In this document: in pieces, positions 1 through 39,880 of the stretch
Numbering within the stretch: position 1 is the first letter of the stretch
How the letters are laid out: every line of letters begins with the position of its first letter
Assembly (NCBI GenBank): GCA_964428325.1
Contig: CAYRXU010000004.1
Span: forward strand, 1 to 56,496
Length of the DNA stretch: 56,496 nt
Direction of reading: 5' to 3'
Source of the DNA: Candidatus Woesearchaeota archaeon
Lineage (GTDB): Archaea > Nanobdellota > Nanobdellia > Pacearchaeales > GW2011-AR1
Translations under genes and position numbers: made by a program
The notes under the pieces: generated by a model
Seen by the model: the letters and a program-made list of their open reading frames with translations, nothing else
The model's database searches: none
Told to the model about the DNA's origin: nothing

Positions 1-54
1 CAAGGACGATGCCCTTTCGCGGCGTAAACCCGGGTTCGAATCCCGGCAGGGGCA
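1..54 (+). tRNA. tRNA-Glu(TTC), 5'-truncated by the window edge; integration target
   Basis: Anticodon arm ATGCC-CTTTCGC-GGCGT, T-arm CCGGG-TTCGAAT-CCCGG, acceptor 3' strand CAGGGGC plus discriminator A; nearly identical to the tRNA-Glu at 41057. Confidence 0.9.
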
Positions 55-56
55 TC
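44..56 (+). repeat. attL core (13-bp direct repeat overlapping the tRNA 3' end)
   Basis: CGGCAGGGGCATC, identical to 18460-18472. Confidence 0.9.
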
Positions 57-1295: not shown

Positions 1296-4200
1296 TTATT
1301 TCTCAGCCCAATCTCTAGCAACGAGCTCTGCTTGCTTCAAGACCAATTCTGTGGCTTTCTGTTGCTTGTCTGGAGGATATCCATATTTTCTTAAAATTCT
1401 CTTAACAAGTAATCGCAAATTTGCTTGTATGTTTTCTCGCAACGTCCAGTCAATCGTAACATTTCTTCGTATTGCTTCTGTCAACTCAACAGCAATCTTT
1501 CGTAACGTATCATCGCCAAGCACCTTAACTGCACTATCATTTACTTCAAGTGCATCATAGAATGCAATTTCGTCCTCACTCAAATCAAGCTCACTACCCC
1601 GATTCTTTTCTTCCTTGACTTTCTTAGCTAATTCAATTAGTTCTTCTATAACTTGTGCAGCTTCAATACTCTTATTCGTATATTTTTTAATGGTTTTATC
1701 TAACAAATCCATAAAGGACTTTCCTTGAACAAGATTTTTCTTCATCATGATTCTAATCTCGTCATTAAGTAATTTCTTGAGCGTTTCAAATGCAAGGTTT
1801 TTTTGAGGCATCTCTTTAACTTCCGCTAAGAATCCTTCAGACAGAATTGAAATGTCGGGCTTTTTGATACCTGCTGCTGCAAAAATGTCCACAATCCGAT
1901 CGGAAACAATAGCCTTAGACAAGATTTGCTTGATAGCAGAGTCTATACTTTCTTTATCAAATAGTTTAGTTATCGTATTCTTAGAGAGTGCAGCTTTTAT
2001 TGCTTGGAAAAGTCCAACCTCTTCTTTAATCTTCATTGCCCTATCATGAGGAACTGCAAGAGAAAATGCCTTGAGAAGAGCAGTCGTTTCTTTGATGTAT
2101 CGCTCTTTACCGTCTTTTTGTTTTAAGATATGTTCCATTGCGTTTGGCAAGAACGAGATTCTCTCTTTCGGACTCAATCTAAAGAATTTCTTGTAATCTA
2201 ATCCGTGAAACATGGAACTAACAACTTCATACTTTTCTAGCATTAATTCGACGGCCTTATCCTGATCAAACGTAGGCTTGCCCTTGCCCCCGCTTTCAGT
2301 ATAATCCATTAGAGCCTTCTTGAGATCAACCCCTATGCCCATGTAATCAACAATCAATCCTCCTTCTTTGTCCTTGAAAACTCGATTAACACGCGCAATT
2401 GCCTGCATGAGGCTATGTCCCTTCATAGCTTTGTCAACATACATTGTATGCAGAACAGGAGCATCAAAACCCGTAAGCCACATATCGCGCACAAGTACGA
2501 GTTTAAGCGGATGATGTTGGTCTTTAAGGTTCTCGCCTATATGTTGTCGACGTGACTTATTGCGTATGTGTTCCTGCCATTCCTTGGGGTCGGAAGCAGA
2601 GCCAGTCATAATAATTTTCACGACACCACTGTCATCGTCCTTACTATACCAGTTGGGACGTAACTTGATAATTTCATTATACAACTCGACACAGATTCTT
2701 CGGCTCATACATACAATGATGCCCTTTCCTTCTAAAACTTCAGTTCTCTTCTCAAAATGGTCGACAATATCCTCTGCAATCTTCTTGATACGCCTCGGAC
2801 TTCCTGCAACCGCCTCTAGACGCGCCCATTTACTCTTGAGTCTCTCCTTACCTTCTTCTCCCTCAGTTATTTCCTCGAACTCTTGGTCAATTTTGGGTCT
2901 TTCTTCAGGTTTAAGCTCTAACTTTGCAAGTCTACTTTCATAATAAATTCTAACTGTTGCTCCATCTTTTACTGCTTGCTCAATATCATAGACGTCCACA
3001 TACTTGCCAAAAACGGCAGGAGTGCTCTTATCAGATTTTTCAATAGGTGTTCCTGTAAATCCGATAAATGACGCTTTGGGCAATCCGTCCCGTAAATACT
3101 TAGCAAACCCATAGGTGATAAGTGCCTTGTCTTTTTTATCGAGTACCTTTGCACTAAACCCGTACTGGCTTCTGTGAGCTTCATCAGCGATAACAACAAT
3201 ATTATCTCGTTCTGAAAGAACAGGATACGTCTCTCGCTCCTCTTCAGGGAAAAACTTTTGGATGGTTGTGAAAATAACGCCTCCTGAAGAAACTCGCAAT
3301 AAGTTTTGAAGTTCCTTTCTCGACTCTGCTTGAACAGGTGTTTGCTTGACTATGTCTCGACAACGACCAAACGTCTCAAATAATTGCCCATCGAGATCGT
3401 TTCTATCTGTGAGTAAAACAACAGTCGGATTGTCCAATTCTCTCACCAGCTTTCCTGTGTAAAAGACCATTGTAAGACTTTTCCCCGAACCTTGTGTATG
3501 CCATACTACTCCTGCTTTCTTATTTCCTTTACGCGCAGCGATAGTAGACTCTAGAGCTTTATTGACTGCATAGTATTGGTGATATGCAGCCACCTTCTTA
3601 TGCGTCTCCTTATCTTTCTCAAAAACAATAAAGTTTCGTATAAGGTCAAGGAATCTTTCCTTATCGCACATTCCCTTAAGGAGGACTTCCATTTCTGTAA
3701 GACTCTTACTGGGTTTTCGACCATCAAGGCTTTTCCATTGCATAAAACGTTCTTTAGCAGAAGTCAATGTGCCCACTCGCGTATCAAGCCCATCGCTTAC
3801 TATCAATAGTTCGTTATAAGTGAAAACGGAGCTAATCTGTTCTTTATACGTTTGTAATTGATTATATGCCGTCCAGATAGTTGCCTCTTCATCCGCAATA
3901 TTCTTTAGTTCAACAAGCACCAAAGGAAGACCATTAACAAACAGGATTACGTCAGGTCTTCGATCTACATTGTTTTCAATTATTGTAAACTGATTAATTG
4001 CAGTAAACTCGTTACGCTCTGGTTTATCGAAATCTACCAGCCAAACCGTATCTCCCACGATTCGTCCGTCTTTTCGATATTCAACCGCCACACCATCTAC
4101 AAGCATTTTGTGGAAACTTTCGTTATTGGCTATAAGCGATTGATTTTCTGCGCGTAGAACCCTCTTTAACGCCTGTTCTTGTGCTTCTGCTGGAATATGA

Positions 4201-4411: not shown

Positions 4412-5584
4412 TTAAGGTTGTGTTTTCTGACTGTCAGAACTTTCTTTCTTATGTTGAAAATCGTAATTTCTAGTGGTTATCTTCTCAACAAGTTTAACAG
4501 CTTCTATTATGAGTTTCCTTGCTTTCTCCTTATCAATGTCTGGTTTCATGATGCTTCTTAGAGCAGGCAAATTTTCAGCAGTCAGATAAGTTGGTTTGGG
4601 AGGGTGTTCGCCTTTCAGCGAAATCATGTAGGCAGGAACGACTACCTCGGGAATTATTTTGTGGAGATTAGAATGAACATAGTTGTTTCTTATGAATTCC
4701 CTAAGTTCTTGAAGGTATTTTTTCTCTTGATCACCAATAAATCCTTGCGAATGACAATCGTTTATTAAATTCTCTAGCTCTGCTTCATAGTGCTCTTTCT
4801 TTTTATAGAACCATATTTCTTTCAAAAAAGACTCTATGAATATAGAGAGCATACAGATAGAAGCATTAAAGTTTCCAAACCAAAAATTACTTATGGTTTC
4901 ATAATATAAGGATTTATTTTCAGCTTCTAAGTGGATTCTATCATTAATTAGAGGTAATTGCCTCATTCTATCTATGATCTCGTCTTTTTTAGCTAAAAAG
5001 GAATTATACATCTTTTCCGCTTCTTCTTTTTTTAAGAAATATTCTTCTTCTTTTATCATTCGTTTGTGCAAATCTTTAGGGGCAGACATTAATTCATCAA
5101 ATTCCTTAATCTGCGCGTTTAAACCCTTTATTTCCTCCGATTCTTCAGAAAATCCCCTCCCAAGCATTTTCTCTTTCTTATACAGAAATCTTTCTCTTTG
5201 TATCGCTAGATTTGAAGCAGAAACAAATTCAGCAGGATTCTGAATCGATTCCACATTAGCACTATTCTTTAAACTACTGAAATACTCAGCAATTTTGTAA
5301 ATATTATTATTTTCATCTTTAAATGATTGGAATAATTTAGATTTCTTTCGAAACTCCAAGAATTCTTTTTGATCAATTATTTTATTTTCATACAGATAGT
5401 CTAAGAGGGTTTGAACATCACATTCATTTTTAATCTCTCGAGCCAAATAGTGATAAAATTCTAGTTTCTGGCCGATCATTATTTTATCGATTATCTCCCC
5501 TATTCCTTTTCTAAATTCGTAGAATTCTTTTTTCAGTTTTTCATAGTCAGAACTTTCTTCATCCATTCGCTCTAATCTCTCCAT
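4412..5584 (-). CDS. Protein with N-terminal helical/coiled-coil region and C-terminal HEPN-like domain
   Basis: C-terminal IESFLKE...RNNYVH (Rx4H); lies between hsdS and hsdR. Confidence 0.6.
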
Positions 5585-6812
5585 TCATTAATTTAGGCAA
5601 AAGCGAATCTCTGATTTTCATTAGAGAATAATTTTCGTAAAAGTTCTTTTCCATTGTTCTTCTAATAGGTTTAATAATCTGATCAAAAGATTCTAAACTT
5701 TTTTTATCTGGTATTAAAACGTTTACCTTCTTTATTCCCTTAACATTAAAACTATCAAAAATAGTTCCTCTGTCTATATTCTTCTCTATTTCGTCTCTTC
5801 CTAATTGAGAATGGAGAAATAGGAGTAAGTAAAAAGGAGAGATGGTAGTTGCCCTTATAGCAGTTATGTTTCTACCTATGCCTGCTTTAAAATTGTAAGG
5901 GGTCTGGGATATGTTCCCAGAGAAACCTGCGTTGTTGATCAATATATCTCCTTCTTCAACTTCTATATTATTTGTCCAAATACTATAATCTTCTTCGCTT
6001 ATAAAATACTTCTTATCTAAATTAAGCAGACCTTTTTGACCCATATTATAAAATTGCAATAGTAATTTTCCCCCTTCTTTTTCTTCTGGCTTTTTAGTAT
6101 GTAAACAATCAATCACTCTTGCAATTTCAGGTAATTTTTTAATCTCCCAAGTATCTTTTCGTTCATCGATAAACCATTTCTTAAAAAACGCCTGCCCAAT
6201 ATTTTCAAGCGTTCTATTCATTTGATTGTTGAGTTCTATTTTATCCTGAATTATCTTGTAAAATTTACCTATTTCTTGCTGTTCTTTAATTTTTGGCAAT
6301 GGGATAATAAAAGACTTCATTTTCCCCCCATCAATAGCTCTTCTAGATGACCCAGAATTAAATGATCCAATATAATTTTTAGTTTGAGGCAAGATAAGAT
6401 ATGCATTCAGAAACCAAGGAGATAGTCTTTCTTTATTACATCTGATACAACCAACTGAACGAGTGATCACTGCGGGCAACATGTCCTTTGGAACTATACA
6501 TGATCTTGCAAAAGTTATGCCATCCCCAAGCTGATTTAATAAAACATCTTCCTCTTCCAATTCAGCAGATTTTAATTCTAGATATTGTTCTTTAGAGATG
6601 TATCCCACTTTTGACTTATCAAGATAGCCATCAAAAACAGGAGCACTCTGAATAATGCGAAACGCCGTAAGTTTATTAGAATGGCTTTGTTTTCCTCCTT
6701 TAGGGTCTCTTCCGCAAAATATTTTTTTGACACTACTTCCTAACTTGGTTATTTCCCAATCTTCTGGAATCTTTCCTATTTCAGTTTGTTTGAACTTGGT
6801 TTGTTGCTTCAT
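5559..6812 (-). CDS. hsdS: Type I R-M specificity subunit
   Basis: IGKIPEDWEITKLG start, central IPLPKIKEQQEI...WEIKKL conserved repeat, terminal [12 protein letters not shown]; ATG at 6812 (ORF track starts at 6821). Confidence 0.95.
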   Translation of the reverse strand: MKQQTKFKQTEIGKIPEDWEITKLGSSVKKIFCGRDPKGGKQSHSNKLTAFRIIQSAPVFDGYLDKSKVGYISKEQYLELKSAELEEEDVLLNQLGDGITFARSCIVPKDMLPAVITRSVGCIRCNKERLSPWFLNAYLILPQTKNYIGSFNSGSSRRAIDGGKMKSFIIPLPKIKEQQEIGKFYKIIQDKIELNNQMNRTLENIGQAFFKKWFIDERKDTWEIKKLPEIARVIDCLHTKKPEEKEGGKLLLQFYNMGQKGLLNLDKKYFISEEDYSIWTNNIEVEEGDILINNAGFSGNISQTPYNFKAGIGRNITAIRATTISPFYLLLFLHSQLGRDEIEKNIDRGTIFDSFNVKGIKKVNVLIPDKKSLESFDQIIKPIRRTMEKNFYENYSLMKIRDSLLPKLMNGEIRANG

Positions 6813-7311
6813 TATTAACAATCTCCTGAACAGCTTGTTTTGGTGTTAAAACCTTAAAATTAGGAATGGTTTGTTCCAAAATCGTAAAATCTTTCAAGTT
6901 CCATGTAACAAAGCAGTCTATTTGATTTTCTACTATCGCCTGACATTGAATTGCATCTCCAGATTTTTCATTGAATTTTATCGCCGTTTCTATAAAATTG
7001 TCTATTAATTCTCTAGAAAAAGCTTGCGGGCTAATTTGTTTCTTTGATGAAGAAAAAGGGAGAGGATTTATTGTTTTTCTCCAAGATTTAGTTATTCTAT
7101 ATAGCAAAGAATAGGCTTTATCTTTGTCTTTAGTTCTTCTTATCATGGCAGAAGCCAATTCCAGAAAGGTAAAGATAGAAGTAAAAAAAGACACCTTCTT
7201 TGATTTACAGGTCAATACGTAATCCATAAATTCTTTCGATTCTTTATGGTTAGCTTCGCCTTCAATTTCAGAAGCTACGATGACGTCAGAATCAATGGCT
7301 ATATTTTTCAT
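6781..7311 (-). CDS. PIN-domain (VapC-like) ribonuclease
   Basis: IAIDSD, TFLELA, SGDAI and FVTWNLKDF acidic motifs; probable ATG at 7311. Confidence 0.8.
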   Translation of the reverse strand: MKNIAIDSDVIVASEIEGEANHKESKEFMDYVLTCKSKKVSFFTSIFTFLELASAMIRRTKDKDKAYSLLYRITKSWRKTINPLPFSSSKKQISPQAFSRELIDNFIETAIKFNEKSGDAIQCQAIVENQIDCFVTWNLKDFTILEQTIPNFKVLTPKQAVQEIVNNEATNQVQTN

Positions 7312-7312
7312 T

Positions 7313-7456
7313 TTAATAGTAGTCGCTCCAGAAAGATACCCTTCGCCTCCTTCTAGAAGGAACTTTAGCCACAAACGAAACTTTTCTTCCTCTAGCCCTA
7401 AACGAAACTCTTTTCCTTACTCTGCCTCTCGCTAAAAAACTAATTCTTCTTGCCAT
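7313..7456 (-). CDS. 47-aa Arg-rich peptide MARRISFLARGRVRKRVSFRARGRKVSFVAKVPSRRRRRVSFWSDYY (absent from the ORF track)
   Basis: Translated by hand; GAGGTAGG Shine-Dalgarno before the ATG, overlaps the upstream stop and ends 1 nt before the PIN ATG; internal repeats. Confidence 0.75.
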   Translation of the reverse strand: MARRISFLARGRVRKRVSFRARGRKVSFVAKVPSRRRRRVSFWSDYY

Positions 7457-8024
7457 CGCCTACCTCGTTATTTTTCTCTTGAGATTCTTTTAGTTTATTC
7501 TCAAAATCCTTAAAAACTGGTCCAAAATCCCTTTGAATTAGAGTGCTAAGTCTCACATATTCCAAGAGACTCTTAATCAATAGTTTGATTGAATTATTGC
7601 ATAAATCAAAATACTCTTTCAGATTTATCTCATTAACTTTTTCTATATCAACTATCAGACGATGAAGAATAAGATTTCGTTTAGAGTTTAATTTCTTCAA
7701 ATCGTTATATAACTCTAAGTCAATTATACAATTAAAGTGAAGTAATGACAAACTTTCCATGAATCTAAGTCTTTTTATATAATCTTTATAGTCGTTGCTT
7801 ATTATTGACCTGCTTAAATTTATTTTTGAATTTAACAAAATATAAACGAAAGATTTCATAAGTTCGTCTATGAATACATGAGAATAAGATATCCAGTGAA
7901 AATGAAACTTATTATTATAAGCCTCGTTTAGGTCTTTCTCTAAATCGTAGGAATTAATTAATTGGCTAAAGGGCTCATCGTTATCTTCGTGGTTATCCAT
8001 TCCAACACTCCTTAGTTTCCTCAA
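7440..8024 (-). CDS. HEPN-like protein
   Basis: KRNLILH (Rx4H) in a helical 194-aa protein; coupled within the hsd operon. Confidence 0.55.
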   Translation of the reverse strand: MRKLRSVGMDNHEDNDEPFSQLINSYDLEKDLNEAYNNKFHFHWISYSHVFIDELMKSFVYILLNSKINLSRSIISNDYKDYIKRLRFMESLSLLHFNCIIDLELYNDLKKLNSKRNLILHRLIVDIEKVNEINLKEYFDLCNNSIKLLIKSLLEYVRLSTLIQRDFGPVFKDFENKLKESQEKNNEVGDGKKN

Positions 8025-8232
8025 TTAGTTTCATAATTCCGAAATAAATATAAAAAATAAGACAAATTATTAAAACAAATCCGATAAATATTTGATAACC
8101 TGTAGTCGCAGTATCAAAAGTATGTTGTATCGCTGCCCCAAATAAGATCTCGAAAAGAGTCGGCACTCCCACAATTACAAAAATCCAAGCAATCAAAAGC
8201 TTAAACCAATTGTCACACACTATAGTTTCCAC
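7993..8232 (-). CDS. Small two-TM membrane protein
   Basis: Two hydrophobic stretches; overlaps the hsdM stop. Confidence 0.6.
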
Positions 8233-9752
8233 CCTAAACCAGCAAGGTTCTTTCTAATTTCAGCTTCGAGTCTATCGCTCTCCTTAAACTGCTCAGCGAG
8301 CTCTGATGTGAGACGTTTCATTTTTTCATCAAATGGCTCGCTATCCTCTTCTACCTCAGCAGTTCCCACATAACGGCCAGGAGTTAGGGTATGTTCATGT
8401 TTACGAATCTCTTCGAGGCTTGCCGATTTACAGAATCCTGCAATATCTTCGTACTTCTTGTCTTTCTGCTCTCCGCGCCAAATATGATATATATCTGCGA
8501 TTTTCTTTACATCCTCGCTTGTTAGTTCCTTATGGCGACGATCAATCATAGCCCCCAGGTTTCTCGCATCGATGAAGAGAACATTCCCCCCCCTATTTCT
8601 AAAATTATGATCTCTTTTATCGCGTGTTACGAACCATAAACAGCAGGGAATCATCGTATTATAGAAAAGCTGTGAAGGTAAAGCAACCATACAGTCAACA
8701 AGATCAGCTTCTACGAGATTCTTTCTAATTTCTCCCTCCCCAGAAGTATTAGATGACATAGAACCATTTGCAAGCACAAATCCTGCGGTGCCTGTTGGTG
8801 AAAGATGATGGATGAAGTGTTGCACCCAACCGAAGTTTGCGTTTCCTAAGGGAGGAGCACCATATTTCCATCTAACATCATCACGTAACAGTTCGCCCTT
8901 CCAATCACTATCATTGAAAGGAGGGTTTGCAATCACGAAGTCTGCTTTGAGGTCTTTATGTAGATCATTATGGAAACTGTCTCCCCATTGAATATTGGCA
9001 TCAATGCCTCTAATAGCCATGTTCATTTTAGCGAGTCGCCAAGTGGTCTGATTTGACTCTTGTCCAAATACGGAAATGTCTCCTAGTCTCCCTCCATGAG
9101 CTGCAATGAACTTCTCGCTCTGCACAAACATACCGCCAGAACCGCAGCACGGGTCGTAGATTCTGCCCTTATACGGTTCAAGCATTTCTACAAGCAACGC
9201 AACGATACTTCGAGGCGTGTAAAACTGTCCTCCTTTCTTACCTTCTGCATCTGCGAACTGTCCTAGAAAGTATTCATATACACGACCGAGAATATCTTTA
9301 CTCTTGCTTTCTTTATCGCCTAAACCAATGGTTCCGATAAGATCAATAAGTTCTCCTAAACGCTGTTTGTCAAGTGAAGGTCGTGCATAGTCTTTTGCAA
9401 GAACGCCTTTTAACGAAGGGTTGTCTTTTTCTATTGCTTCCATAGCATCATCAAGCAACTTTCCTACGGTCGGTTGTTTTGCATTCTTTTGAAGAAATTC
9501 CCAACGTGCTTTTTGTGGAACCCAGAACGTATTCCTAGCGCGATATTCATCTCTATCTTCTGCATCGGCCAATTTGTCTTTTTTTAATTCGTTGTACACT
9601 TCAATAAACGAATCAGAGATATACTTGAGAAAGATAAGACCTAATACAATATGCTTGTATTCGGCAGCATCCATATTATTTCTCATCTTATCGGCTGCCT
9701 GCCATAACTTCTGCTCAAATCCAAGATTGGCTCCGCTAGATAGTTTCGTCAT
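8220..9752 (-). CDS. hsdM: Type I R-M N6-adenine methyltransferase
   Basis: DPCCGSGG motif I, NPPFN motif IV, GQFYTP. Confidence 0.97.
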
Positions 9753-9787: not shown

Positions 9788-10111
9788 CTAACTGCCATCT
9801 TTAACTCTCCCTAATAACAGCAATATCGGGGTCACATCTTTCTTTTCCAAGTTCTCAACGATTTTCTTTAGCTCTTTAGGAGAACGATTGTAATACATCG
9901 AATAAGCAAACTTGCCTCGCTTTTCCTTAAGTTGTGGGAAGATGGTAAGAATCTCTTTTCTTAAATTAATAATGCTCCAACTCTGCATACTCTCTTTGTA
10001 AGAAACGTAACCCAGAATATTAATTGTGTCCTTCGGTATAAGATGCTTGAAGTCTTCTTCGCGTATAGCTTCTCTTTCCTTTTCCGACTGGTTTGTTTCT
10101 CTTTGGTTCAT
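9788..10111 (-). CDS. Hypothetical protein
   Basis: 107-aa ORF co-oriented between the CYTH gene and hsdM; no recognised motif. Confidence 0.55.
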   Translation of the reverse strand: MNQRETNQSEKEREAIREEDFKHLIPKDTINILGYVSYKESMQSWSIINLRKEILTIFPQLKEKRGKFAYSMYYNRSPKELKKIVENLEKKDVTPILLLLGRVKDGS

Positions 10112-10148: not shown

Positions 10149-10679
10149 TTACTTCTTACGCTTGTTTGCTTCGTCTAGTATTTTGAAATAGTCTTCTCCG
10201 ACTCTTTCAACAAGACCCTTAAGTTTATCTAGGACTTTTTGGACTTCTTCTTCAGAAGGCCCTTCCAGTTCCATAAACTTAAGCTTAGCAGGTTTTGTGA
10301 GTTCAATAAACGCAATCTCAACTTTTCCTAATTGCCAGTACTCTCGTTCAGAATGATTCTCAAGAAGCGTGTAAAACTGCATATGATTAAACATTTGTGC
10401 AACGGCTTCAGGATTGTCTACTTTGCTCGTTAATTCAATACGCTTCCATATGTCACTTTCGGTTTCACGCTTCCCTTTGAAAGTCACTTCTGCTGCATCT
10501 CCCTTAACGCGTAAACGCAAAAAGTCTTTAGCATTCTTCATATCGGTATCTTCTAAACTAAAATATGTATCTGCAAGTGTATATTTTTCCTTAAAGACAG
10601 CTCCGAGTTTCTTTAGTTCGGCAATTACTTTTTCTTTATCTTTAAAGGAAAGCTTAATCTCTATTTCGTGTTGTCCCAT
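10149..10679 (-). CDS. CYTH-domain protein (class IV adenylate cyclase / triphosphatase family)
   Basis: EIEIK (ExExK), FLRLR, TFKG, ELEG. Confidence 0.9.
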   Translation of the reverse strand: MGQHEIEIKLSFKDKEKVIAELKKLGAVFKEKYTLADTYFSLEDTDMKNAKDFLRLRVKGDAAEVTFKGKRETESDIWKRIELTSKVDNPEAVAQMFNHMQFYTLLENHSEREYWQLGKVEIAFIELTKPAKLKFMELEGPSEEEVQKVLDKLKGLVERVGEDYFKILDEANKRKK

Positions 10680-10680
10680 A

Positions 10681-11295
10681 TTATTTCGGTACTCCCACCA
10701 ACTGCGGCCGTTTTATAAATCCACTCAATCGAGTCACTACCTCTCTTTGAGGCAATTCAGAATCGATCTCCAAAAGACGATAGTCTCTTTGCGCTTGAGC
10801 GTATCTTTCGCCCAACGTTCTCAGTTCTGGCAAGGTATCTCTCATATCAAGGCCTGCACATAAATGAGAATTATCTAATCCTCTTCTTCTCTGTTCATCC
10901 CAACGAGCAAGTGAAGTTTCTGGAGTCAGCTTGAACAATATAGGATACGTCACGCTGGGTAATTGGTCAGCAATGCGTCGAGACATATCTGCATAAAATG
11001 GTTGCGACACCAATCCCTGCTCTGCATCCGCACCAAGTAAAACCAGCCTGTCGTGAAATCCTCGTTCATAAATGGCAAAATCGCATCCTTTCGTCTCGGC
11101 ATCTCTTCGCGCTCCAACAAAAGCATCAAATAACCGAACATGAAAATCTTCAAGGCCTGCACAATCGCTGAATCGTATCGGTGGTCGTGAAACGCGGGCA
11201 CAGCGATACCCTTCTGATTCCAGAAGTCGCGCTAGAGCCTCTTGTTGAGTTGTTTTACCTGCTCGCGAGAGTCCCAAAAACTCAATAGTCTCCAT
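10681..11295 (-). CDS. dTMP-kinase-like nucleoside monophosphate kinase
   Basis: P-loop GLSRAGKTT, YERGFHD equivalent to the dTMPK/dNK DR/ER motif, LKLTPETSLAR. Confidence 0.75.
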   Translation of the reverse strand: METIEFLGLSRAGKTTQQEALARLLESEGYRCARVSRPPIRFSDCAGLEDFHVRLFDAFVGARRDAETKGCDFAIYERGFHDRLVLLGADAEQGLVSQPFYADMSRRIADQLPSVTYPILFKLTPETSLARWDEQRRRGLDNSHLCAGLDMRDTLPELRTLGERYAQAQRDYRLLEIDSELPQREVVTRLSGFIKRPQLVGVPK

Positions 11296-11989
11296 AATAT
11301 GCCTCCTGCAATTTCTTTGCCTTGCCTGATTTTATCTTATGAGTGATAAGTTCGTAAACGGAGGGGCAGAGCAATTCAATTTTATCCTTTATTTTGAACA
11401 AATCATCGAACTCATTAATATCATCAAAATAACGCAATTGAATACACTCTCCCTGCGTATTGACTGCTAAATCAACGAGTGAGTTTTCGGTGCTCCATCG
11501 AACGTTTTCAAAGATATTCTGTTTGAAAGGCCCTCTTACCCCTATCAAATAAACTCCCCCGTTATGTTCTGGCCCAAAGACGAATTGCTGTTTATCTAAA
11601 TCGTCAAATGCTTTGTTTAAGTCCTGTTCAGTTAGGTAGGGAACATCCATGGGAATGAGAATCGCTTTTTCGTAATTTATATCACCTAATAAAGTAGAAA
11701 AGATTCTGTGAAACTTGATGCTTTGTTTTTCCTGTTTATTTCCTGTTTTAACAGGTTGAACTATGAGTGAGTCAATCCCATACTTCTGCTTGAACAGACG
11801 CGCTTCACGTTTACTATTAACTCCTACAACCAAATCATAATCGTTTGCAAAACGTATGTTTTTAATCAAGTCATCAAAACATCGAACGCTGAGTTCATAT
11901 GCAAAATCCTCTCCCGTGACTTTTCCTACCCGAGTCTTAGTAGCCCCCTTCTCAGGCCACTTAGCATAGATAATAACTACATTCTTCAT
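11282..11989 (-). CDS. DUF2064 / TIGR04282-like (CofC-related) nucleotide-binding transferase
   Basis: AKWPEKGATKTR, MDVPYL, VFGPEHNGGVYLIG, WST. Confidence 0.8.
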   Translation of the reverse strand: MKNVVIIYAKWPEKGATKTRVGKVTGEDFAYELSVRCFDDLIKNIRFANDYDLVVGVNSKREARLFKQKYGIDSLIVQPVKTGNKQEKQSIKFHRIFSTLLGDINYEKAILIPMDVPYLTEQDLNKAFDDLDKQQFVFGPEHNGGVYLIGVRGPFKQNIFENVRWSTENSLVDLAVNTQGECIQLRYFDDINEFDDLFKIKDKIELLCPSVYELITHKIKSGKAKKLQEAYYGDY

Positions 11990-13050
11990 ACAAGTACAGC
12001 CTCCCGACCCTTAGGTTGTTTCGCGCTCACTGTCAGAGTTGTTCCTTTGAGACCTTGATTCCAATATGCAGAATTCAACCCTGGGGCGGTGTAAAGAAAA
12101 TCTCGAGATGCTTGTACTCGCTGCATAATCTCCTCAGAATCGCGCACATCAATCGCATCTCTCAGAGGAATGGTTTTTCCACTCGCATGACACGGCTTGA
12201 TATCTAAAGCAGGGGTTACTAAAATTTCGTTTGATTTGTAACACGCCTTGCACACGTCCTCTCGTCCACATCCAATATCAATAGAAACTCCTTTCGTACC
12301 CCGATACTCAAATACCTGAATAGGTAAATAACTCGTTTGACCTCTAAATGTGCCCTCCGTTCCTAAGGGCTTGGCCCCTAATGCTTCAATCCGTGCAGTT
12401 AGATCAGTTACAGGTTTTCCTTTCCCTGCATGGCAGTCCGAGATAGGCTCAAAATTTAGAAACTTGAACTTGAATCCGCGTTCAGCACAATAATCAAGCG
12501 TTCTTCTCATGCAATTAGGTGAATCGTTTATACCTTCCATAGGAACGTGCTTAATTTCTACCCGAGAACCGTAACCTTCTTCCGCAAATCTATCTAAGTT
12601 AGCCATAACCTGCCCGAATTGGCGCACCGTGCCCTTTGTGAGGGCATTCCACGTATCATAATCGAATGCATGCACCGAAACCCCGACCTTCGTAAAGCCC
12701 TTTAACTGCCCGCGAATGTGCCGTTCTCGCAATGCGATCCCGTTGGTATGAATAAATCGTTTTCCGATCGCGCGTTCCTCCAATCCATCCATAATGCGTT
12801 CAAGCTCAGGATGTAACGATGGATCTCCGCCAGTCAAAGCAACATGATCTAATCCTTGTTCCTTCAAGGCCCCAACCAAGTAGAGAAGTGAATCCGTATC
12901 AACATGTGACAAATTACGCTGTTCTGGCCCCATACCTTCGTTAGAACAAAATACGCATCCTAAATTGCAATAATCAGTTATTGCCACTCGTAATGGAACC
13001 GCTTTCAGAATTTCTCTCAAGCCAGCATTCATAAGTACACTTAGGCTCAA
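11986..13050 (-). CDS. MoaA-like radical SAM enzyme with twitch-type auxiliary cysteines (probable ATG at 13032)
   Basis: CNLGCVFC (CxxxCxxC), LTGGDP, C-terminal CKAC...KPC. Confidence 0.85.
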   Translation of the reverse strand: MSLSVLMNAGLREILKAVPLRVAITDYCNLGCVFCSNEGMGPEQRNLSHVDTDSLLYLVGALKEQGLDHVALTGGDPSLHPELERIMDGLEERAIGKRFIHTNGIALRERHIRGQLKGFTKVGVSVHAFDYDTWNALTKGTVRQFGQVMANLDRFAEEGYGSRVEIKHVPMEGINDSPNCMRRTLDYCAERGFKFKFLNFEPISDCHAGKGKPVTDLTARIEALGAKPLGTEGTFRGQTSYLPIQVFEYRGTKGVSIDIGCGREDVCKACYKSNEILVTPALDIKPCHASGKTIPLRDAIDVRDSEEIMQRVQASRDFLYTAPGLNSAYWNQGLKGTTLTVSAKQPKGREAVLV

Positions 13051-13138
13051 ATTTTTATATACTTTTTGCGTTTATATTTACTTCTTATACATAAATATAT
13101 ATTTTGGGAAGATTTAAATACCTTTTACGTTTCCGCAA

Positions 13139-14056
13139 TTGATGCAACGAAAGATCGTTAAGCATGGAAAAAGCACCTTAAGTGTCTCGCTTCCTTCTAA
13201 GTATGTACAAGCTAATAATCTCAAAAACGGGCAACTGATGAATATTGAGGTATCAAAAGGAAAACTTATTCTGTCAGCAAAAGAAAAGCACTTTGATAAG
13301 ATAGAGACTGATCTTACTGAAAGTGAAGAGTGGCCTATTGTTCGGATTCTTAGACATCTCTATACGGCGGGGTATGATGAAATCGATGTTAAATATACGC
13401 AGCAAAAATTGCCCCTTATCCGAAAGAGTTTACATCACATCACGGGTTTGGAAATTGTAGAGGTAGGCCCAACTCATTGTAAACTAAAATGCATGAGCTC
13501 TCTTGATGAAAATGAGTACGATTCTCTTATCAAGCGTATTATGTGGATGGTTTTATCTGAATTTGATCGTTTTCTAGAAGATATCGCGGGAGGAACACTT
13601 GCCACTGATGAAGTTCAAGAAATACTTAACACCGTAAGCAGATTATGCAACCTTTGCAAGCGCATCATCAATAAAAAGAGTATTTATGACTCAACGGATA
13701 GCATCTATGCCTATGATTTTATTGATTCTATGATTGAAATGTCGGTTTTAGTGCTCTACGCTTATGATTATCTTAAGAAAAATAAGAATATCAAACTTAC
13801 AGAAAAAGAAGTCGCTTTCATAAAACAGACTCGCGACTATTTTTATGATCTTATCTTAGCCTATCAAAACACCAATCTAGAGAAGACAAGAACATTTTTT
13901 GAGCAAAGAAAAGAGACGTTTGATGATTTCCTTGAATTACTTAATGGCAAAAATCCTGTGATTATGCATTATTTTCTGATGATCTTGCGTAATTTAACCC
14001 CTGTTGGCAACCATATCATTATGTTAGGCCTGAGAAAGAAAGATAAGCAGCAATAA
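13139..14056 (+). CDS. AbrB-N / PhoU-like transcriptional regulator
   Basis: RKIVKHGKSTLSVSLP AbrB-type N-terminus, LRHLYTAGYDEI, helical PhoU-like remainder. Confidence 0.75.
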   Translation: MMQRKIVKHGKSTLSVSLPSKYVQANNLKNGQLMNIEVSKGKLILSAKEKHFDKIETDLTESEEWPIVRILRHLYTAGYDEIDVKYTQQKLPLIRKSLHHITGLEIVEVGPTHCKLKCMSSLDENEYDSLIKRIMWMVLSEFDRFLEDIAGGTLATDEVQEILNTVSRLCNLCKRIINKKSIYDSTDSIYAYDFIDSMIEMSVLVLYAYDYLKKNKNIKLTEKEVAFIKQTRDYFYDLILAYQNTNLEKTRTFFEQRKETFDDFLELLNGKNPVIMHYFLMILRNLTPVGNHIIMLGLRKKDKQQ

Positions 14057-14595
14057 TGGAACAGGAAACGTCATTTATTCATACTAGTGATTTGCATCTC
14101 AATGGAGAAAAAAGCAGATTCAACGTATTCTCTCGCATCGTTTCACTTTGCATAAAGAATAAAGTCGCAGGTCTCATCATTGCAGGCGATCTCTTCGATG
14201 AAGATGCAAGCAAAGCCACTATAAAGAAAGGATACGCACAATTCAATCGGTTAGGAAAATCTCACACAAACGTCTATTTAATCAGAGGAGATGAAGATGC
14301 AAAAATAAAGCTGGATAAATTACCCCCAAATGTCAGACTATTTAGAAACAACAGTACATTTTCGATAGACAGATATAAAATTGGCCTATTTCACGGACGT
14401 CCTGAAAATATGAAGTCAAAATCAAAAATAGACTATATGGCTCTAGGCCACTTTCACGATTTAACTAAGGTCAACTCTCGAGCTTATTACTCGGGTTCTC
14501 CGATTCCTTCCTTGAAGTATAAGAGAAAGCGAAGATATGTGATACTTATCAAATTCCATGATAAAGATATTAGTTTCTCAAAAATCAGATTTTAG
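14056..14595 (+). CDS. Calcineurin-like metallophosphoesterase (Mre11/SbcD nuclease-domain-like)
   Basis: SDLH, AGDLFD, FHG, LGHFH, YSGSP; GNH motif replaced by GDE. Confidence 0.75.
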   Translation: MEQETSFIHTSDLHLNGEKSRFNVFSRIVSLCIKNKVAGLIIAGDLFDEDASKATIKKGYAQFNRLGKSHTNVYLIRGDEDAKIKLDKLPPNVRLFRNNSTFSIDRYKIGLFHGRPENMKSKSKIDYMALGHFHDLTKVNSRAYYSGSPIPSLKYKRKRRYVILIKFHDKDISFSKIRF

Positions 14596-14918
14596 TCGTT
14601 TCCTTCGCCTTCATCATGCTCTTCTGGCCCTAAAGAAAGATTTCCTATTTCAAAATCGATGTCTTTATCATACTTAGGATCAAGAATACGCTCGAGTAAA
14701 AAACGTAATTTAGGTCTTAATTGTTCACGAACTTCTTGTGGAACATCTGCTTCATAAGCAGAAGTCAAAGTCAAATACCTTTCTGATTTCAAGAAGTCAT
14801 GCCTTCCCTTTTCGAACCATTCTTCCTTCGGAAAACTAGCTGCGTGAGTAAGCAAGCTATCAAGATAAGTATGATGGGCGTGTGCAATTCGCACTACGTC
14901 ATTGGTGTGATAAGTCAT
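14592..14918 (-). CDS. Hypothetical protein
   Basis: Strong AAAGGAGG Shine-Dalgarno; overlaps the methyltransferase stop. Confidence 0.6.
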   Translation of the reverse strand: MTYHTNDVVRIAHAHHTYLDSLLTHAASFPKEEWFEKGRHDFLKSERYLTLTSAYEADVPQEVREQLRPKLRFLLERILDPKYDKDIDFEIGNLSLGPEEHDEGEGND

Positions 14919-15747
14919 TTTGTCCTCCTTTCAAATCGGGTTTAACTGCGCGCAGGATACCTTTGCGAAATGTCGCCTGAATATCTCGACCTTTATCTGT
15001 AAAATTGATGGATTCCTTGACATGTTCTGGAACAACAGCACGAATGAAATCGTTCAATTCTTCAAGTTTAGACTCGTTTCCGCCTAACTCCGTATGCAGG
15101 CGTTTTTCAGAAGAGAAGGGATAGGGAATTTCTTGAACTAATTCAATATTATAAAATCCAGCCTTTTCTAAATAATTGCGTAATTCTTCCTCACGAGGAA
15201 GATAGCGGTTAAGAGCCATATCATAAAACCCAGCAAGACGATTCTTTTCATGCACAATCGTCTGAAACACGAGCTGTTCAATATGCCCTTTAAACATTAA
15301 ATCCCAAATAACAAGGATTCCGCCTGGCTTCAAGGCCCGATAAGCTTGAGCTATGACTTTATATTGATCTTTGCGAGGCACCTCATGAACACCCATTTTG
15401 ATCGCGATCCTATCAACACTTTCATCCGCAAGACTCAAAGAACGAACGTCCTCGTAGAGACGAATAACAGAAAAATCAGGCAGTTCAACTTTGCTTCTAT
15501 CGATTTGTTCCTTAGCAAAATCAATCAGAAGAGCATTGATCTTAATGTTCTGGGATTTGCAATAGTCGAGAATAGCTTTAGTTACGGACCCGTAACCAGA
15601 CATCAGATCAACAAAAACCTGACCATCCTTTAAATCTAGGCTTCTGGCTATAACTGTCAAATTCTCAGACGAAACGTTATGAATCTCTTCATAGCGTACG
15701 TTTCGCTTGTTCCATCCTTGTGTATGATCTTCCATACAAAGTCGCAA
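14899..15747 (-). CDS. Class I SAM-dependent methyltransferase (probable ATG at 15735)
   Basis: VDLMSGYG motif I, LADESVD, LKPGGILVIWD. Confidence 0.85.
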   Translation of the reverse strand: MRLCMEDHTQGWNKRNVRYEEIHNVSSENLTVIARSLDLKDGQVFVDLMSGYGSVTKAILDYCKSQNIKINALLIDFAKEQIDRSKVELPDFSVIRLYEDVRSLSLADESVDRIAIKMGVHEVPRKDQYKVIAQAYRALKPGGILVIWDLMFKGHIEQLVFQTIVHEKNRLAGFYDMALNRYLPREEELRNYLEKAGFYNIELVQEIPYPFSSEKRLHTELGGNESKLEELNDFIRAVVPEHVKESINFTDKGRDIQATFRKGILRAVKPDLKGGQNDLSHQ

Positions 15748-18459: not shown

Positions 18460-18472
18460 CGGCAGGGGCATC
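18460..18472 (+). repeat. attR core
   Basis: CGGCAGGGGCATC, identical to 44-56. Confidence 0.9.
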
Positions 18473-25949: not shown

Positions 25950-26215
25950 TATGATTTAGCCTTCTTCTCCTTTACTCGAGGTTCAATGCTCTTTTTGTGA
26001 TCAGCTGAATCATATACAAAAGCCTCAACAGTCACATGGTGCGAGCCATAATGGCTTCCAATCTTCTTGATAGCAACATGTTCTGGAGCAACCTTAAAGT
26101 GGGTCGCTACAAGCTCAAGTGCCTGTGCATGACTTGGAGGAGATGCCTGCTGTAGCTGAATCTTGACTTCATGTCGCTTCAATAGCTTGTTTGGTTTTTC
26201 GTGTAGTATGTTCAT
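25949..26215 (-). CDS. rps24e: 30S ribosomal protein S24e
   Basis: NKLLKRHEV, PPS...ALELVA, YG...AFVYDS; synteny. Confidence 0.9.
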   Translation of the reverse strand: MNILHEKPNKLLKRHEVKIQLQQASPPSHAQALELVATHFKVAPEHVAIKKIGSHYGSHHVTVEAFVYDSADHKKSIEPRVKEKKAKS

Positions 26216-26397
26216 CGTAATCTCACTGCGAAGAGCCCTTTCTTAGTTAAAGAAAGTTTCTTCGAAATCTCAGATTGTTCAGGGTTTAAAACTATTACCT
26301 TTCCCTTAAAACTGTCAAGGGATTCGTTAGATCCGCACTCAGGACACTTAGCCCCCTCATATAGTGATCTGCATTGTCTACATGCTTTGACTGCCAT
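26212..26397 (-). CDS. spt4: Transcription elongation factor Spt4 (RpoE'')
   Basis: KACRQC...CPECGS, GKVIVLNPEQSEISK. Confidence 0.95.
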   Translation of the reverse strand: MAVKACRQCRSLYEGAKCPECGSNESLDSFKGKVIVLNPEQSEISKKLSLTKKGLFAVRLR

Positions 26398-26398
26398 G

Positions 26399-26674
26399 TT
26401 AAGCTCTAACCTCCTGGGTCGATCGGGCCTGTTCAGCTAAGTATCCTTGAATTCTGTAAGCTGCGCCAACAACATTAACGCTGTTCGGATCAACGTCAAG
26501 CAAAACAGACTGAGGAATATGATAAGAAGAGCTAACATTATAAGCGAAATCCAGAAAAGCTCCTTTGTGAATAACATCGTCCCGTAGAATAGCCCCAATA
26601 GTCCTACGGTCTTCAGCACCCACATCTAGGATTTCTCTCAAATCTTGAGCGATGACAGCTACTTCAGGATTCAT
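26399..26674 (-). CDS. Hypothetical protein inserted between rpoE1 and spt4
   Basis: ATGA overlap with the rpoE1 stop. Confidence 0.55.
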   Translation of the reverse strand: MNPEVAVIAQDLREILDVGAEDRRTIGAILRDDVIHKGAFLDFAYNVSSSYHIPQSVLLDVDPNSVNVVGAAYRIQGYLAEQARSTQEVRA

Positions 26675-27270
26675 TTCTTGCTCTCCTTCTTTGATTTCTT
26701 TTCGCCCTTTTCGCCTTCCTTCTTAGCGCGGGCATTCTTCTTGTTCTGCTCATCAAGCCACTCTACCTTTCCAAGTCCAGGCTGTCTCATCGTCAATCCA
26801 ATCTTAGGATCGCCCATCTTATAACTGATAGCAACGATGCGAGCCATGCACTTGTCTCCAACAGAAAGAATTCTCTTTGAGTTTTTACCGGCAAGTGTTC
26901 CTGTCTTATTCAAAGAAACATAATCGTCCATCGTCTGCGAAATGTGAATCATTCCCCGAGCAGGACCAATTCTTATGAATGCTCCAAAGTTAGTAATCTC
27001 TTCTATAGTACCGTAAGCTAGCTCATGCAACTCCGGCTTCCAGATAAGAACAGTAAATCGTGACTTGTAATAAGTTGCGCCATCACCAGGAATGATAACT
27101 CCGTCGCCAACATAATCAACACCGACAACACTCATAACGAAACCAATTTCTTTGCTGACTTTATCGACGTAAGTCTCATTCAATTGCTTCTCTACAGCTT
27201 CCTTGGTTTCCAAACCAAAGAGGCGCGGCTCAACCCGCACATGGTCTTCAATGTGAGCTAAATAGAACAT
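26671..27270 (-). CDS. rpoE1: RNA polymerase subunit E' (Rpo7)
   Basis: PGDGATY, FGAFIRIGP..GMIHISQ S1 domain, KIGLTMRQPGLGK. Confidence 0.97.
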   Translation of the reverse strand: MFYLAHIEDHVRVEPRLFGLETKEAVEKQLNETYVDKVSKEIGFVMSVVGVDYVGDGVIIPGDGATYYKSRFTVLIWKPELHELAYGTIEEITNFGAFIRIGPARGMIHISQTMDDYVSLNKTGTLAGKNSKRILSVGDKCMARIVAISYKMGDPKIGLTMRQPGLGKVEWLDEQNKKNARAKKEGEKGEKKSKKESKK

Positions 27271-27316
27271 CTCATTTAGTGATAAAGATGGTTTTTAAAG
27301 CTTTTCAAAGCTCAAA

Positions 27317-27598
27317 TTAAGAAGCTATTTCTTCAGCCACGCAGGTCTCTGGACTAGCAGCATGTCCATCATATACAATAGGCTCTCCAGAATAGTCCTT
27401 AGGAAGATTATTCAAACTCTCATCAGAAATGCCTGCAAGCAAATAACCCACAAGCACATGCCTCCCATGAGACTCTGAGAATTTGTAACCCCAATCGACA
27501 TGATGAGCTGAAGGAGGGAATTTGCCTTCAAGTTCATTAGATAATCGCTCAAGGAGACTAACGCGCTCAAGCTTACGAGAAAGATCCGCATCCAGCAT
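27317..27598 (-). CDS. Hypothetical protein
   Basis: 93-aa co-oriented ORF. Confidence 0.5.
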   Translation of the reverse strand: MLDADLSRKLERVSLLERLSNELEGKFPPSAHHVDWGYKFSESHGRHVLVGYLLAGISDESLNNLPKDYSGEPIVYDGHAASPETCVAEEIAS

Positions 27599-27637
27599 TC
27601 GCTAATTACCCAATTCTCCTATTTAACTATTTAGATT

Positions 27638-28030
27638 CTATCCAGATTCTGGCCCAACACGTTTTTGAGCATCAAAAATAACAACCCTATTCGGTACTTG
27701 CTTCTTTACTTCGCGGTCAAGGCTAGCAATATAAGCACCCTGTTTGCCCTTATGGATAAGAGACTCGTCAACTTTTCCTTTACCCAAGCTAACATGTTTA
27801 ACCTTGGTGCGCTCAAGAAAAGCCAAAGCAAGATCAATTGCCAATCGGTCATCTCGTGAAGCTTTTTCACTCTTACGCAAGTCTCTCAATTCCTGCACAA
27901 CTTCCTTAGGTACAAGTACCTTGAAACCTTGTCCTTCTAACTGATCAACAAAATCAATATTTTTCCTAAAACAAGAAACAATGAAATTCGTATCAACAAT
28001 CACTTCCATAAGACACAATAGTTCACGCAC
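27638..28030 (-). CDS. PIN-domain protein (Fcf1/Utp24-like)
   Basis: VIVDTNF, VVQEL, VDESL, IASLDRE; usual neighbour of rpoE1. Confidence 0.85.
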   Translation of the reverse strand: MRELLCLMEVIVDTNFIVSCFRKNIDFVDQLEGQGFKVLVPKEVVQELRDLRKSEKASRDDRLAIDLALAFLERTKVKHVSLGKGKVDESLIHKGKQGAYIASLDREVKKQVPNRVVIFDAQKRVGPESG

Positions 28031-28088
28031 TATATAATCCTTATGAAGCCCAACTAACGTTTATATATCTGCAACACCAAATAGCTTA

Positions 28089-28667
28089 ATGGTGATGGTA
28101 GACGATAAAAAAGAGATGGAGCACATCGCTCTTGTTCTAAAGCAAACCAAGAAAGCCCTCAAAGACTCTGATGCTCTACTTTTACAACAGCTTTCAGACC
28201 AAACAATCCACTCAGCGACCATTCATCAACACACAGATTTCATTGCGATAGCAGTTCTCATATATACACTCAACAAAATGGTCGCACATCGCGACAAAAT
28301 AAAAATAAAACGCTGGGATGCACTTACGACCAAACTCTCTAACGAAATCGACAAGTCGCTTGCAGAGCTAGAAAAAAGGGACGTCGAAGAATTTGCACGC
28401 CATCTTGAGCACATAAAAGATCTTCTAATTGATTTCTCGCCTAGCGCACGACAAGATATCCAAGAAGTCCTACGTAAGGCCGAAGTCAACAAAGCAACAA
28501 AGATCTACGAGCACGGCATCTCGCTCACAAAGACAGCCCACCTCCTCGGGATAACGCAATGGGAACTAGTAGATTACATCGGACAGAAAAACATTTTTGA
28601 CAATCCCCTCAATGCCACAATGGAAGTAAAAAAGCGAGCTAAAATGGTCGAGGACTTTTTCAAATGA
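28089..28667 (+). CDS. Helical protein with C-terminal UPF0175-like HTH
   Basis: GISLTKTAHLLGITQWEL. Confidence 0.55.
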   Translation: MVMVDDKKEMEHIALVLKQTKKALKDSDALLLQQLSDQTIHSATIHQHTDFIAIAVLIYTLNKMVAHRDKIKIKRWDALTTKLSNEIDKSLAELEKRDVEEFARHLEHIKDLLIDFSPSARQDIQEVLRKAEVNKATKIYEHGISLTKTAHLLGITQWELVDYIGQKNIFDNPLNATMEVKKRAKMVEDFFK

Positions 28668-29335: not shown

Positions 29336-29400
29336 ATTTGTAACTACTTGTCTGTGACAATAATAGATAGGTTTAAATAGTCATTTTCAAAATCCCAGCT

Positions 29401-29895: not shown

Positions 29896-29896
29896 A

Positions 29897-29967
29897 TGGA
29901 CCTGAAGGGAATCGAACCCCTGTCCTCTGCTCTGGAGGCAGATATCCTACCATTGAACGACAGATCC
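29897..29967 (-). tRNA. tRNA-Trp(CCA), intronless
   Basis: GGATCTG...CAGGTCC acceptor; anticodon arm TCTGC-CTCCAGA-GCAGA. Confidence 0.95.
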
Positions 29968-30119
29968 GTTATTTCCTAAAAACAAAGGGCTGTTTTAAGT
30001 CTTCGCATCAGAGAGTTTTCAGCTAAAGTTTAAACTTGAAGATGCTCAGAAATGCGACGTCAAAGAAGCATTCCTAACATCGGAAGAACATTTATAAACA
30101 ATTTTACCCCTTATAAGAG

Positions 30120-30536: not shown

Positions 30537-30538
30537 GT

Positions 30539-32915: not shown

Positions 32916-32991
32916 ATCCCAAAAAGCGGATTAAACTATATAATACTATCGAGGACGAGACCTTTATATACAACACAGAGGTATATCACTT

Positions 32992-34049: not shown

Positions 34050-34071
34050 TCATTCTCCATCTCCTAACCCT

Positions 34072-37202: not shown

Positions 37203-37203
37203 A

Positions 37204-39848: not shown

Positions 39849-39880
39849 ATACACGTTTACTATAAATTCGCTATAAAAAT

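Follow-up and report, generated by a model that had tools for sequence, protein, structure and literature searches.

The cassette and its enzymes

Four genes lie in a row on the minus strand of a 56,496-nucleotide stretch of contig CAYRXU010000004.1 from a Candidatus Woesearchaeota archaeon (the whole stretch analysed here is called the window). They encode a radical S-adenosylmethionine (SAM) enzyme (13050..11986), a DUF2064 protein (11989..11282, 235 aa), a P-loop kinase, kinA (11295..10681, 204 aa), and a CYTH protein (10679..10149, 176 aa). An earlier note, made from the letters alone, had described these open reading frames (ORFs) with overlapping or abutting junctions; all four are present, and domain scans confirmed the families it had named. 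The radical SAM and DUF2064 genes overlap by 4 nt, the DUF2064 and kinase genes overlap by 14 nt, and a 1-nt spacer separates the kinase and CYTH genes. Since the set recurs in at least 26 independent loci, its grouping is far beyond chance. In our proposal these genes form the core of a nucleotide-tailoring cassette that is self-contained and horizontally mobile and that also includes a regulator and a phosphoesterase; its product would be a modified nucleotide most likely used in conflict. We hold this proposal tentatively, with confidence that stops somewhat short of even.

The radical SAM ORF spans 354 aa from a TTG at 13050. Its start is most likely not this codon but the ATG at 13032, because a TATA box lies 29 nt before 13032 and the resulting 348 aa equal the length of the closest homologue, P0001. 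The TTG is only ~11 nt 3' of the first T of this TATA box. In the domain scan the protein matched Radical_SAM (PF04055) with 75 bits. Its best NCBIfam match was MoaA (TIGR02666), at 108.3 bits against a cut-off of 284, and the C-terminal domain of MoaA (PF06463, Mob_synth_C) was not detected in the Pfam scan. An AlphaFold model of the enzyme (predicted local distance difference test, pLDDT, 88) has its best matches in the PDB in the MoaA structures 1tv7 and 2fb2, over the full length and with template-modelling (TM) scores of 0.65-0.71, followed by SuiB and viperins; the sequence alignment to MoaA covers only the first 200 residues. The CX3CX2C motif (C28, C32, C35) is invariant among 31 aligned sequences. 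A second invariant set, C261, C267, C270 and C287, includes a CX2CX16C motif and would hold a fully ligated second Fe-S cluster, closer to the redox clusters of twitch-type enzymes. Basic residues are invariant at strand ends (K121, K167, K196, R236, K285 and R316) and R21 is also conserved; together with the MoaA alignment, these seven residues would fit a polyphosphate substrate.

Homologues of the radical SAM protein comprise ~100 sequences at 38-53% identity and three close relatives at 86-96%. A profile search of 1.84 billion representative proteins returned ~11 clusters (at 50% identity) scoring at least 219 bits, and the next scores were 170 bits or lower. Judged by this sharp gap, the family is small and distinct.

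The three partner proteins are each related to enzymes that handle nucleotides. The DUF2064 protein scores 57.5 bits against PF09837 (gathering cut-off 25.8) and gives weak CofC and MobA matches. Against TIGR04282 it reaches 95.6 bits, under the cut-off of 134, and it matches PDB entry 3cgx, a 'putative nucleotide-diphospho-sugar transferase', at 8.6e-13. It is probably a nucleotidyl- or glycosyl-transferase-like enzyme of the GT-A fold, related to CofC and MobA. The kinase falls below the cut-offs of both thymidylate kinase models, with 24.2 bits against 27 for PF02223 (Thymidylate_kin) and 19.5 bits against 83.25 for TIGR00041. It carries a Walker A motif (GLSRAGKTT) and a conserved DRGxxDR motif, and a profile of its family matches dTMP kinases and deoxynucleoside kinases in the PDB. 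The best fold matches of its model (pLDDT 90) are the deoxyadenosine kinases 8puu and 2jaq, dTMP kinases, and AbmG 8j5f/8j5g (TM 0.6-0.72). We therefore predict a P-loop nucleoside or nucleotide kinase with the fold of the thymidylate kinase/deoxynucleoside kinase (dTMPK/dNK) superfamily, although it lies below the dTMP kinase equivalog cut-offs. The CYTH protein scores 56 bits against PF01928 (cut-off 23.2) and 65.6 bits against cyaB (TIGR00318, cut-off 57.95), which models class IV adenylate cyclases. The N-terminal ExExK motif is legible in its translation as E5-I-E7-I-K9, and the protein is a predicted CyaB-like triphosphate tunnel metalloenzyme.

Conservation, layouts and control region

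For the neighbourhood comparison, 28 loci were fetched from species-representative genomes and several metagenome contigs, their ORFs were searched with the window's proteins, and the neighbours were clustered. The counts of DUF2064, CYTH and kinase genes refer to the 26 non-redundant loci with enough flank. The DUF2064 gene directly follows the radical SAM gene in all 26 and is fused to a NUDIX domain in ~15 of these. A CYTH gene occurs in 23 loci, and so does a kinase gene, which is kinA, the window's kind, in 14 and a different dTMPK-like gene, kinB, in 9. The earlier note would have given up its reading had the four genes not been conserved together; they are. Their hosts are DPANN archaea and bacteria of the Candidate Phyla Radiation (CPR), and we conclude that the cassette moves between these ultra-small archaea and bacteria.

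Two layouts were seen. The archaeal one, to which the window belongs (form A), has a divergent PhoU-like regulator facing the radical SAM, DUF2064, kinase and CYTH genes; a histidine phosphatase gene is often added, and a phosphoesterase or NUDIX hydrolase gene follows the regulator. The other (form B), found in CPR bacteria and some archaea, begins with a second, paralogous radical SAM gene and has DUF2064 fused to NUDIX, with CYTH on either strand and a kinase usually present. A Gre-factor-like gene accompanies the cassette in 13 loci, mostly those with two radical SAM genes, and points to RNA polymerase. In the tree the two radical SAM paralogues separate, and the archaeal single-enzyme loci form one moderately supported group (92/84) amid unresolved CPR sequences. 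Two signatures are common to both paralogues: CSNEG, which follows the cluster motif, and, close to the C-terminus, GCG...CxxC...KPC.

Some loci depart from these layouts. Two CPR loci (L023 and L029) have a third, short radical SAM-like ORF (251-253 aa) after the Gre-like gene, and both lack a kinase. On a contig labelled Promethearchaeota (L049), a gene for a SAM-dependent methyltransferase (2972-3793) is inserted between the radical SAM gene and DUF2064-NUDIX, and extra NUDIX and CYTH copies lie near the cassette. This insertion hints that the product can be methylated. The UbiE-like methyltransferase of the window (14899-15747) was considered as a counterpart and rejected, since the two are not homologous (E 0.22).

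The cassette is rare among relatives of its host. With a threshold of E <= 1e-40, the radical SAM gene was found in 3 of 301 sampled genomes of the phylum, and it is absent from a genome of the same genus, G241, which is 95% complete. A housekeeping role in DPANN was rejected on these grounds. The gene combination had not been recognised as a described pathway when the note was made, and we likewise found no description of this cassette in the literature searched.

The divergent regulator posited over the operon lies at 13139..14056 on the plus strand. It combines an AbrB/MazE-type N-terminal DNA-binding domain, seen as a weak MazE_antitoxin match at residues 11-49, with a helical PhoU-like body. 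In 12 loci an orthologue is transcribed away from the radical SAM gene (E 1e-17 to 1e-203), so that the regulator is conserved with the cassette. A gene for a calcineurin-like metallophosphoesterase (14056..14595, plus strand; PF00149, 37 bits) follows with a 1-nt overlap, and it is kept after the regulator in the window, L007, L008, L011 and L012. In L022, which lacks the regulator, the metallophosphoesterase gene stands just before the radical SAM gene, and in the clade of L004, L016 and L019 a NUDIX hydrolase gene directly follows the regulator. The same slot is thus filled by different phosphohydrolases across clades: metallophosphoesterase, NUDIX or histidine phosphatase. Since these non-homologous enzymes swap at the same place, we argue that the trimming of phosphates forms an integral part of the pathway.

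The divergent promoter region of the window (13033..13138) has two opposed TATA boxes, as read from its sequence. In the corresponding spacers of L004, L011, L012 and L016-19, the stretch between the divergent TATA boxes contains inverted repeats (GTGTATA/TATACAC or TGTGTG/CACACA type), which are candidate operators of the AbrB-PhoU regulator. A search of the window's own spacer between the regulator and radical SAM genes for such repeats returned only trivial AT-rich palindromes.

The integrated element and its cargo

The source genome of the window is 696 kb long and 87% complete. Its relatives carry the labels Woesearchaeota, Pacearchaeota or Nanoarchaeota, which makes the host a DPANN archaeon. 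The first 56 bases of the window belong to a tRNA gene that is cut by the contig start and form its 3' part, with the T-arm and acceptor sequence legible. The 3' end of this tRNA holds the left attachment (att) repeat, CGGCAGGGGCATC, at 44..56 on the plus strand, and the same 13 bp recur at 18460..18472, also on the plus strand, as the right att repeat; this sequence occurs exactly twice, against 0.04 expected. A tyrosine integrase gene lies at 121-1293 (phrog_1, 2.6e-16; XerA 5hxy, 4.8e-4). The genome of the same genus, G241, shares collinear synteny with the window only from ~19854, running on to 27.3 kb, and has unrelated DNA upstream. The integrase, the att repeats at the tRNA 3' end and the different DNA at this site in G241 place the cassette inside an 18.4-kb tRNA-integrated element, so that the mobile element suggested around the operon is indeed there. 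The DNA that occupies the element site in G241 (C1 ~26000-44500; L037/L038) is similar in length (~18.5 kb), is unrelated to the window's element and carries, ~18.5 kb upstream of the start of synteny, an integrase homologue 41% identical to the window's. This integration site appears to be a recurrent hotspot.

Close relatives keep the core of the cassette while their flanks vary: L008 lacks the window's 14.6-18.1 kb stretch and L007 lacks the restriction-modification (R-M) operon. In L002 an integrase fragment adjoins the cassette.

Downstream of the cassette is a type I R-M operon with hsdM at 9752..8220 (minus strand). The earlier note had placed the cassette directly upstream of this operon. 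It is indeed upstream and co-oriented, and orf107 (10111..9788, minus strand, 107 aa), a gene for a conserved small protein of 90-110 aa, sits between CYTH and hsdM. Homologues of orf107 are 54-88% identical, better conserved than the cassette enzymes, and the gene is common to seven cassette loci. It was considered as a fifth cassette gene and rejected, since its homologues head R-M or defence modules where there is no cassette at all. In L044-46 they lie directly upstream of HsdM-HsdS-HsdR genes and beside conjugation genes. Others are found upstream of genes for an N6_N4 methyltransferase, a Res helicase and the Shedu nuclease SduA (L043, a type III-like R-M arrangement), upstream of NYN and Dam methyltransferase genes (L040), and beside genes for a Dam methyltransferase and a MORC-like ATPase (L041/42). 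Judged by these homologues, orf107 belongs to the R-M module or element backbone and stands at the head of restriction or defence modules across this DPANN element family. The four-gene boundary drawn before was accordingly right, with orf107 outside it and the R-M operon a separate module.

Integrases 59-86% identical to the window's stand at the far end of the orf107-headed modules. Because orf107 homologues head such varied modules with related integrases at the far end, we read the layout of the element family as tRNA, integrase, variable restriction or defence slot, orf107 and a second cargo region, which in the window holds the cassette. The orf107 protein may act as a regulator, or the gene may be part of the backbone and mark a defence slot whose content is exchanged.

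Several further observations were made on these elements and on the window. In L043 (4943-7309), a gene for a B12-binding radical SAM protein (483 aa) and a CYTH gene whose product is 32% identical to the window's directly precede the orf107 homologue; this is a second kind of radical SAM and CYTH pair in the same element position. The HEPN and PIN passenger genes of the window's type I R-M operon (5001-8000) have a GC content of 0.31-0.33, compared with 0.40-0.46 for the cassette and ~0.40-0.47 for the chromosome, and the low GC suggests a separate origin for this passenger module. Farther along the window, at 29897-30346, an ARAGORN 'tmRNA' call overlaps a minus-strand tRNA-Trp gene and, in an archaeon, is almost certainly a false positive.

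Proposed function and known systems

We propose that the nucleotide-tailoring cassette works as follows. The kinase, with its dNK/dTMPK fold, would phosphorylate a nucleoside or nucleotide and thereby feed the pathway or re-phosphorylate an intermediate. The MoaA-shaped radical SAM enzyme, its second Fe-S cluster held by the four invariant cysteines, would bind a nucleoside triphosphate (NTP) in its barrel, where a 5'-deoxyadenosyl radical would alter the ribose or the base. The CYTH protein and the metallophosphoesterase could hydrolyse or cyclise the triphosphate or diphosphate end, as NUDIX and histidine phosphatase might elsewhere. The DUF2064 protein might couple a partner to the modified nucleotide or to a phospho-intermediate, either by CofC/MobA-like nucleotidyl transfer or by glycosyl transfer. 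The PhoU-like protein would control the divergent promoters. Finally, the product is potentially a nucleotide analogue directed against viruses or competitors, with a polymerase as its target, the same idea as that of viperin with its kinase.

On account of its rarity, its movement across archaea and bacteria and its place as element cargo beside a restriction slot, we consider a conflict function to be the single most likely purpose of the cassette, though well short of shown. The neighbours of form A include type I R-M genes (in the window and L019), an HsdR-like protein (L016), an SNF2 helicase with a NOV_C nuclease-like protein (L007), DUF4238 (L017) and DNA methyltransferases (L004); restriction or defence genes thus adjoin the archaeal form in five or six loci. 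The B12-binding radical SAM and CYTH pair at the corresponding place in L043 also speaks for such a function. A more specific version of this proposal, which we regard as rather unlikely, is that DPANN archaea and CPR bacteria exchange an unrecognised nucleotide-based conflict system. In it a new branch of MoaA-shaped radical SAM enzymes, together with the kinase, the DUF2064 transferase and enzymes that trim triphosphates, would make a new polymerase-directed nucleotide, which could terminate chains or bind in the secondary channel of RNA polymerase; in archaea the system would travel as cargo of tRNA-integrating elements beside a swappable restriction slot.

Several points weigh against a conflict function. 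The term 'defence island' used in the earlier note suits the archaeal form, with its R-M, helicase-nuclease or methylase neighbours in the window, L019, L016, L007 and L004, but not the CPR form, in which the neighbours of form B loci are housekeeping genes (sigma-70, ThyA, DHFR, tRNA synthetases, NifU and others). Adjacency to defence genes is found in the archaeal loci only, and much of it comes from one shared element backbone (orf107, defence slot, integrase), so the instances are not independent. In a PADLOC scan no model covered the DUF2064, kinase or CYTH proteins and the PhoU-like regulator had no match. Relatives of the cassette were not found in the viral contigs of IMG/VR, the viral structures of BFVD gave only generic radical SAM folds, and plasmid records held only true MoaA genes at ~27% identity. 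The window's own cassette has neither the Gre-like gene nor NUDIX. The confinement of the family to ultra-small symbionts could equally point to a metabolite linked to their lifestyle, and all steps of the proposed working are derived from the enzyme families.

Alternatively, the cassette could supply a building block for hypermodified DNA or RNA. As in the pathway logic of phage T4, a canonical (d)NTP would be brought to the monophosphate by a pyrophosphatase (CYTH, NUDIX or metallophosphoesterase), modified by the radical SAM enzyme and re-phosphorylated for incorporation by the dNMP-kinase-like enzyme, and DUF2064, with its GT-A fold, would add a further group; the modified DNA would shield the element or the cell from restriction. 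The enzyme roles of T4-type modules (pyrophosphatase, modifying enzyme, dNMP kinase, glycosyltransferase) can by analogy be read into the cassette, and its kinase is closest to deoxynucleoside and dTMP kinases. In L003 the cassette directly follows genes for dCMP deaminase, dUTPase, ThyA and DHFR, a thymidylate kinase gene is near it both there and in L004, and the archaeal form, carried on a mobile element, has genes for R-M and DNA methyltransferases as neighbours. However, the T4 enzymes belong to other families, and the cassette is cellular and element-borne, with no relatives in the viral collections. Of the clustered neighbours conserved with it, none is a DNA-binding transferase, polymerase or transglycosylase; the Gre-like factor of 13 loci points to RNA polymerase and not to DNA, and patchy mobile carriage would be awkward for a genome-wide base replacement. 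We consider this explanation quite unlikely.

It is also conceivable, though a slim prospect, that the product is a regulatory nucleotide, an alarmone or second messenger. Its sensor would be the PhoU-like regulator in archaea or, in CPR bacteria, RNA polymerase by way of the Gre-like factor. The CYTH protein, which passes the class IV adenylate cyclase model, would then be the cyclase, and NUDIX, metallophosphoesterase and histidine phosphatase would turn the signal off. Such a role would suit the retention of synthesis-type and hydrolysis-type enzymes together, even fused as in DUF2064-NUDIX, and the conservation of a dedicated regulator or a Gre-like secondary-channel factor with the cassette. 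Known messenger systems, however, need no radical SAM enzyme, effector or sensor domains (CARF, SAVED, STING and the like) are not conserved nearby, and a prevalence of 1% is low for a core regulator.

Slimmer still is the chance that the cassette makes a cofactor or metabolite, pterin-like or otherwise derived from GTP, for a minority of symbionts, with DUF2064 activating it in the manner of CofC or MobA. The MoaA-like fold with its probable second Fe-S cluster, the relation of DUF2064 to CofC and MobA, the position beside the folate-dependent ThyA and DHFR in L003, and the restriction of the family to organisms with minimal metabolism are all in keeping with this. Mobile-element carriage and the 1% prevalence speak against it, as does the lack of a candidate user enzyme conserved nearby. 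So does the genome itself: MoaC (PF01967) and MoeA (PF03453), which were detected in 11 of 14 control genomes, were not found in the 87%-complete genome of the window, and a genome-wide search for true MoaA returned only the cassette enzyme, below threshold. The last possibility, raised as an alternative by the earlier note, is that the radical SAM enzyme is a plain MoaA, its best named family and best structural match, and the cassette a remnant of molybdenum cofactor (Moco) synthesis with moaC and other Moco genes elsewhere in the genome; this is already contradicted and can practically be dismissed, since the enzyme scores 108 bits against 284 and lacks Mob_synth_C, MoaC and MoeA were not found in the 87%-complete genome, and the partner genes are unrelated, so that the cassette is not part of Moco synthesis. 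A role as a substitute ribonucleotide reductase, considered since MoaA abstracts the 3'-H of GTP, was rejected as well, as the genome has a normal large subunit of that enzyme (PF02867, 455 bits); NrdD was not found in it.

If the cassette does tailor nucleotides for conflict, it would carry out undescribed radical SAM chemistry on nucleotides and yield a new natural nucleotide analogue, possibly a polymerase inhibitor. It would also give a first functional handle on the accessory genes exchanged by DPANN archaea and CPR bacteria, two groups about whose biology very little is known. In the window the cassette is cargo of a bounded tRNA-integrated element, with another island at the same site in a congener, and the layout of integrase, variable slot, orf107 and second cargo offers a guide to further cargo systems of DPANN genomes. 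What our analysis adds is the congener's different island at the same site, a figure for prevalence and the reassignment of orf107 to the restriction slot of the element.

Among known systems, the prokaryotic viperins (pVips), which make chain-terminating 3'-deoxy-3',4'-didehydro-NTPs (ddhNTPs), are similar in that an enzyme of the MoaA/viperin group of radical SAM proteins stands beside a nucleotide kinase in a mobile, defence-rich setting, and viperin folds match the model significantly (TMq ~0.57). The sequence matches are nevertheless low and confined to the N-terminal radical SAM core: 34.7 bits against a cut-off of 180 for NF038283, over residues 24-141 only, and 41.7 bits for the PADLOC pVip model, over residues 24-167. 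In addition, pVip systems lack DUF2064, CYTH and the PhoU-like regulator, and to our knowledge viperins have no second Fe-S cluster. The albomycin pathway offers a parallel for the kinase. AbmG, a protein of dNK fold crystallised with cytidine and with a thio-nucleotide (8J5F/8J5G), is among its best fold matches, and in that pathway AbmG prepares the nucleotide for radical SAM tailoring. There is no orthology at the sequence level and the other albomycin genes are absent, so the analogy is one of logic only. The DUF2064 protein resembles CofC, MobA and the TIGR04282 'arsenosugar' group in its domain, its predicted GT-A fold, its weak CofC and MobA matches and its relative 3CGX. It differs from the TIGR04282 group in its score (95.6 against 134 bits), and the radical SAM enzyme encoded beside it is not an ArsS protein (TIGR04167, 34 bits against a cut-off of 300).

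The best fold match is MoaA, the GTP 3',8-cyclase (1TV7, 1TV8 and 2FB2). The partner genes of the cassette differ entirely from those of the Moco pathway, MoaA has a C-terminal cluster of three cysteines with an open iron site where the cassette enzyme has a fourth invariant cysteine, C261, and in a manual alignment MoaA residues R266 and R268, after CX2C, read K272 and N274 in the cassette enzyme. The two nevertheless share the full-length fold (TM 0.65-0.71), the N-terminal CX3CX2C motif, a C-terminal CX2C...C pattern (CX2CX16C in the cassette enzyme) and an arginine, R17 of MoaA, that aligns with R21. The cassette enzyme is a new branch of MoaA-shaped radical SAM enzymes.

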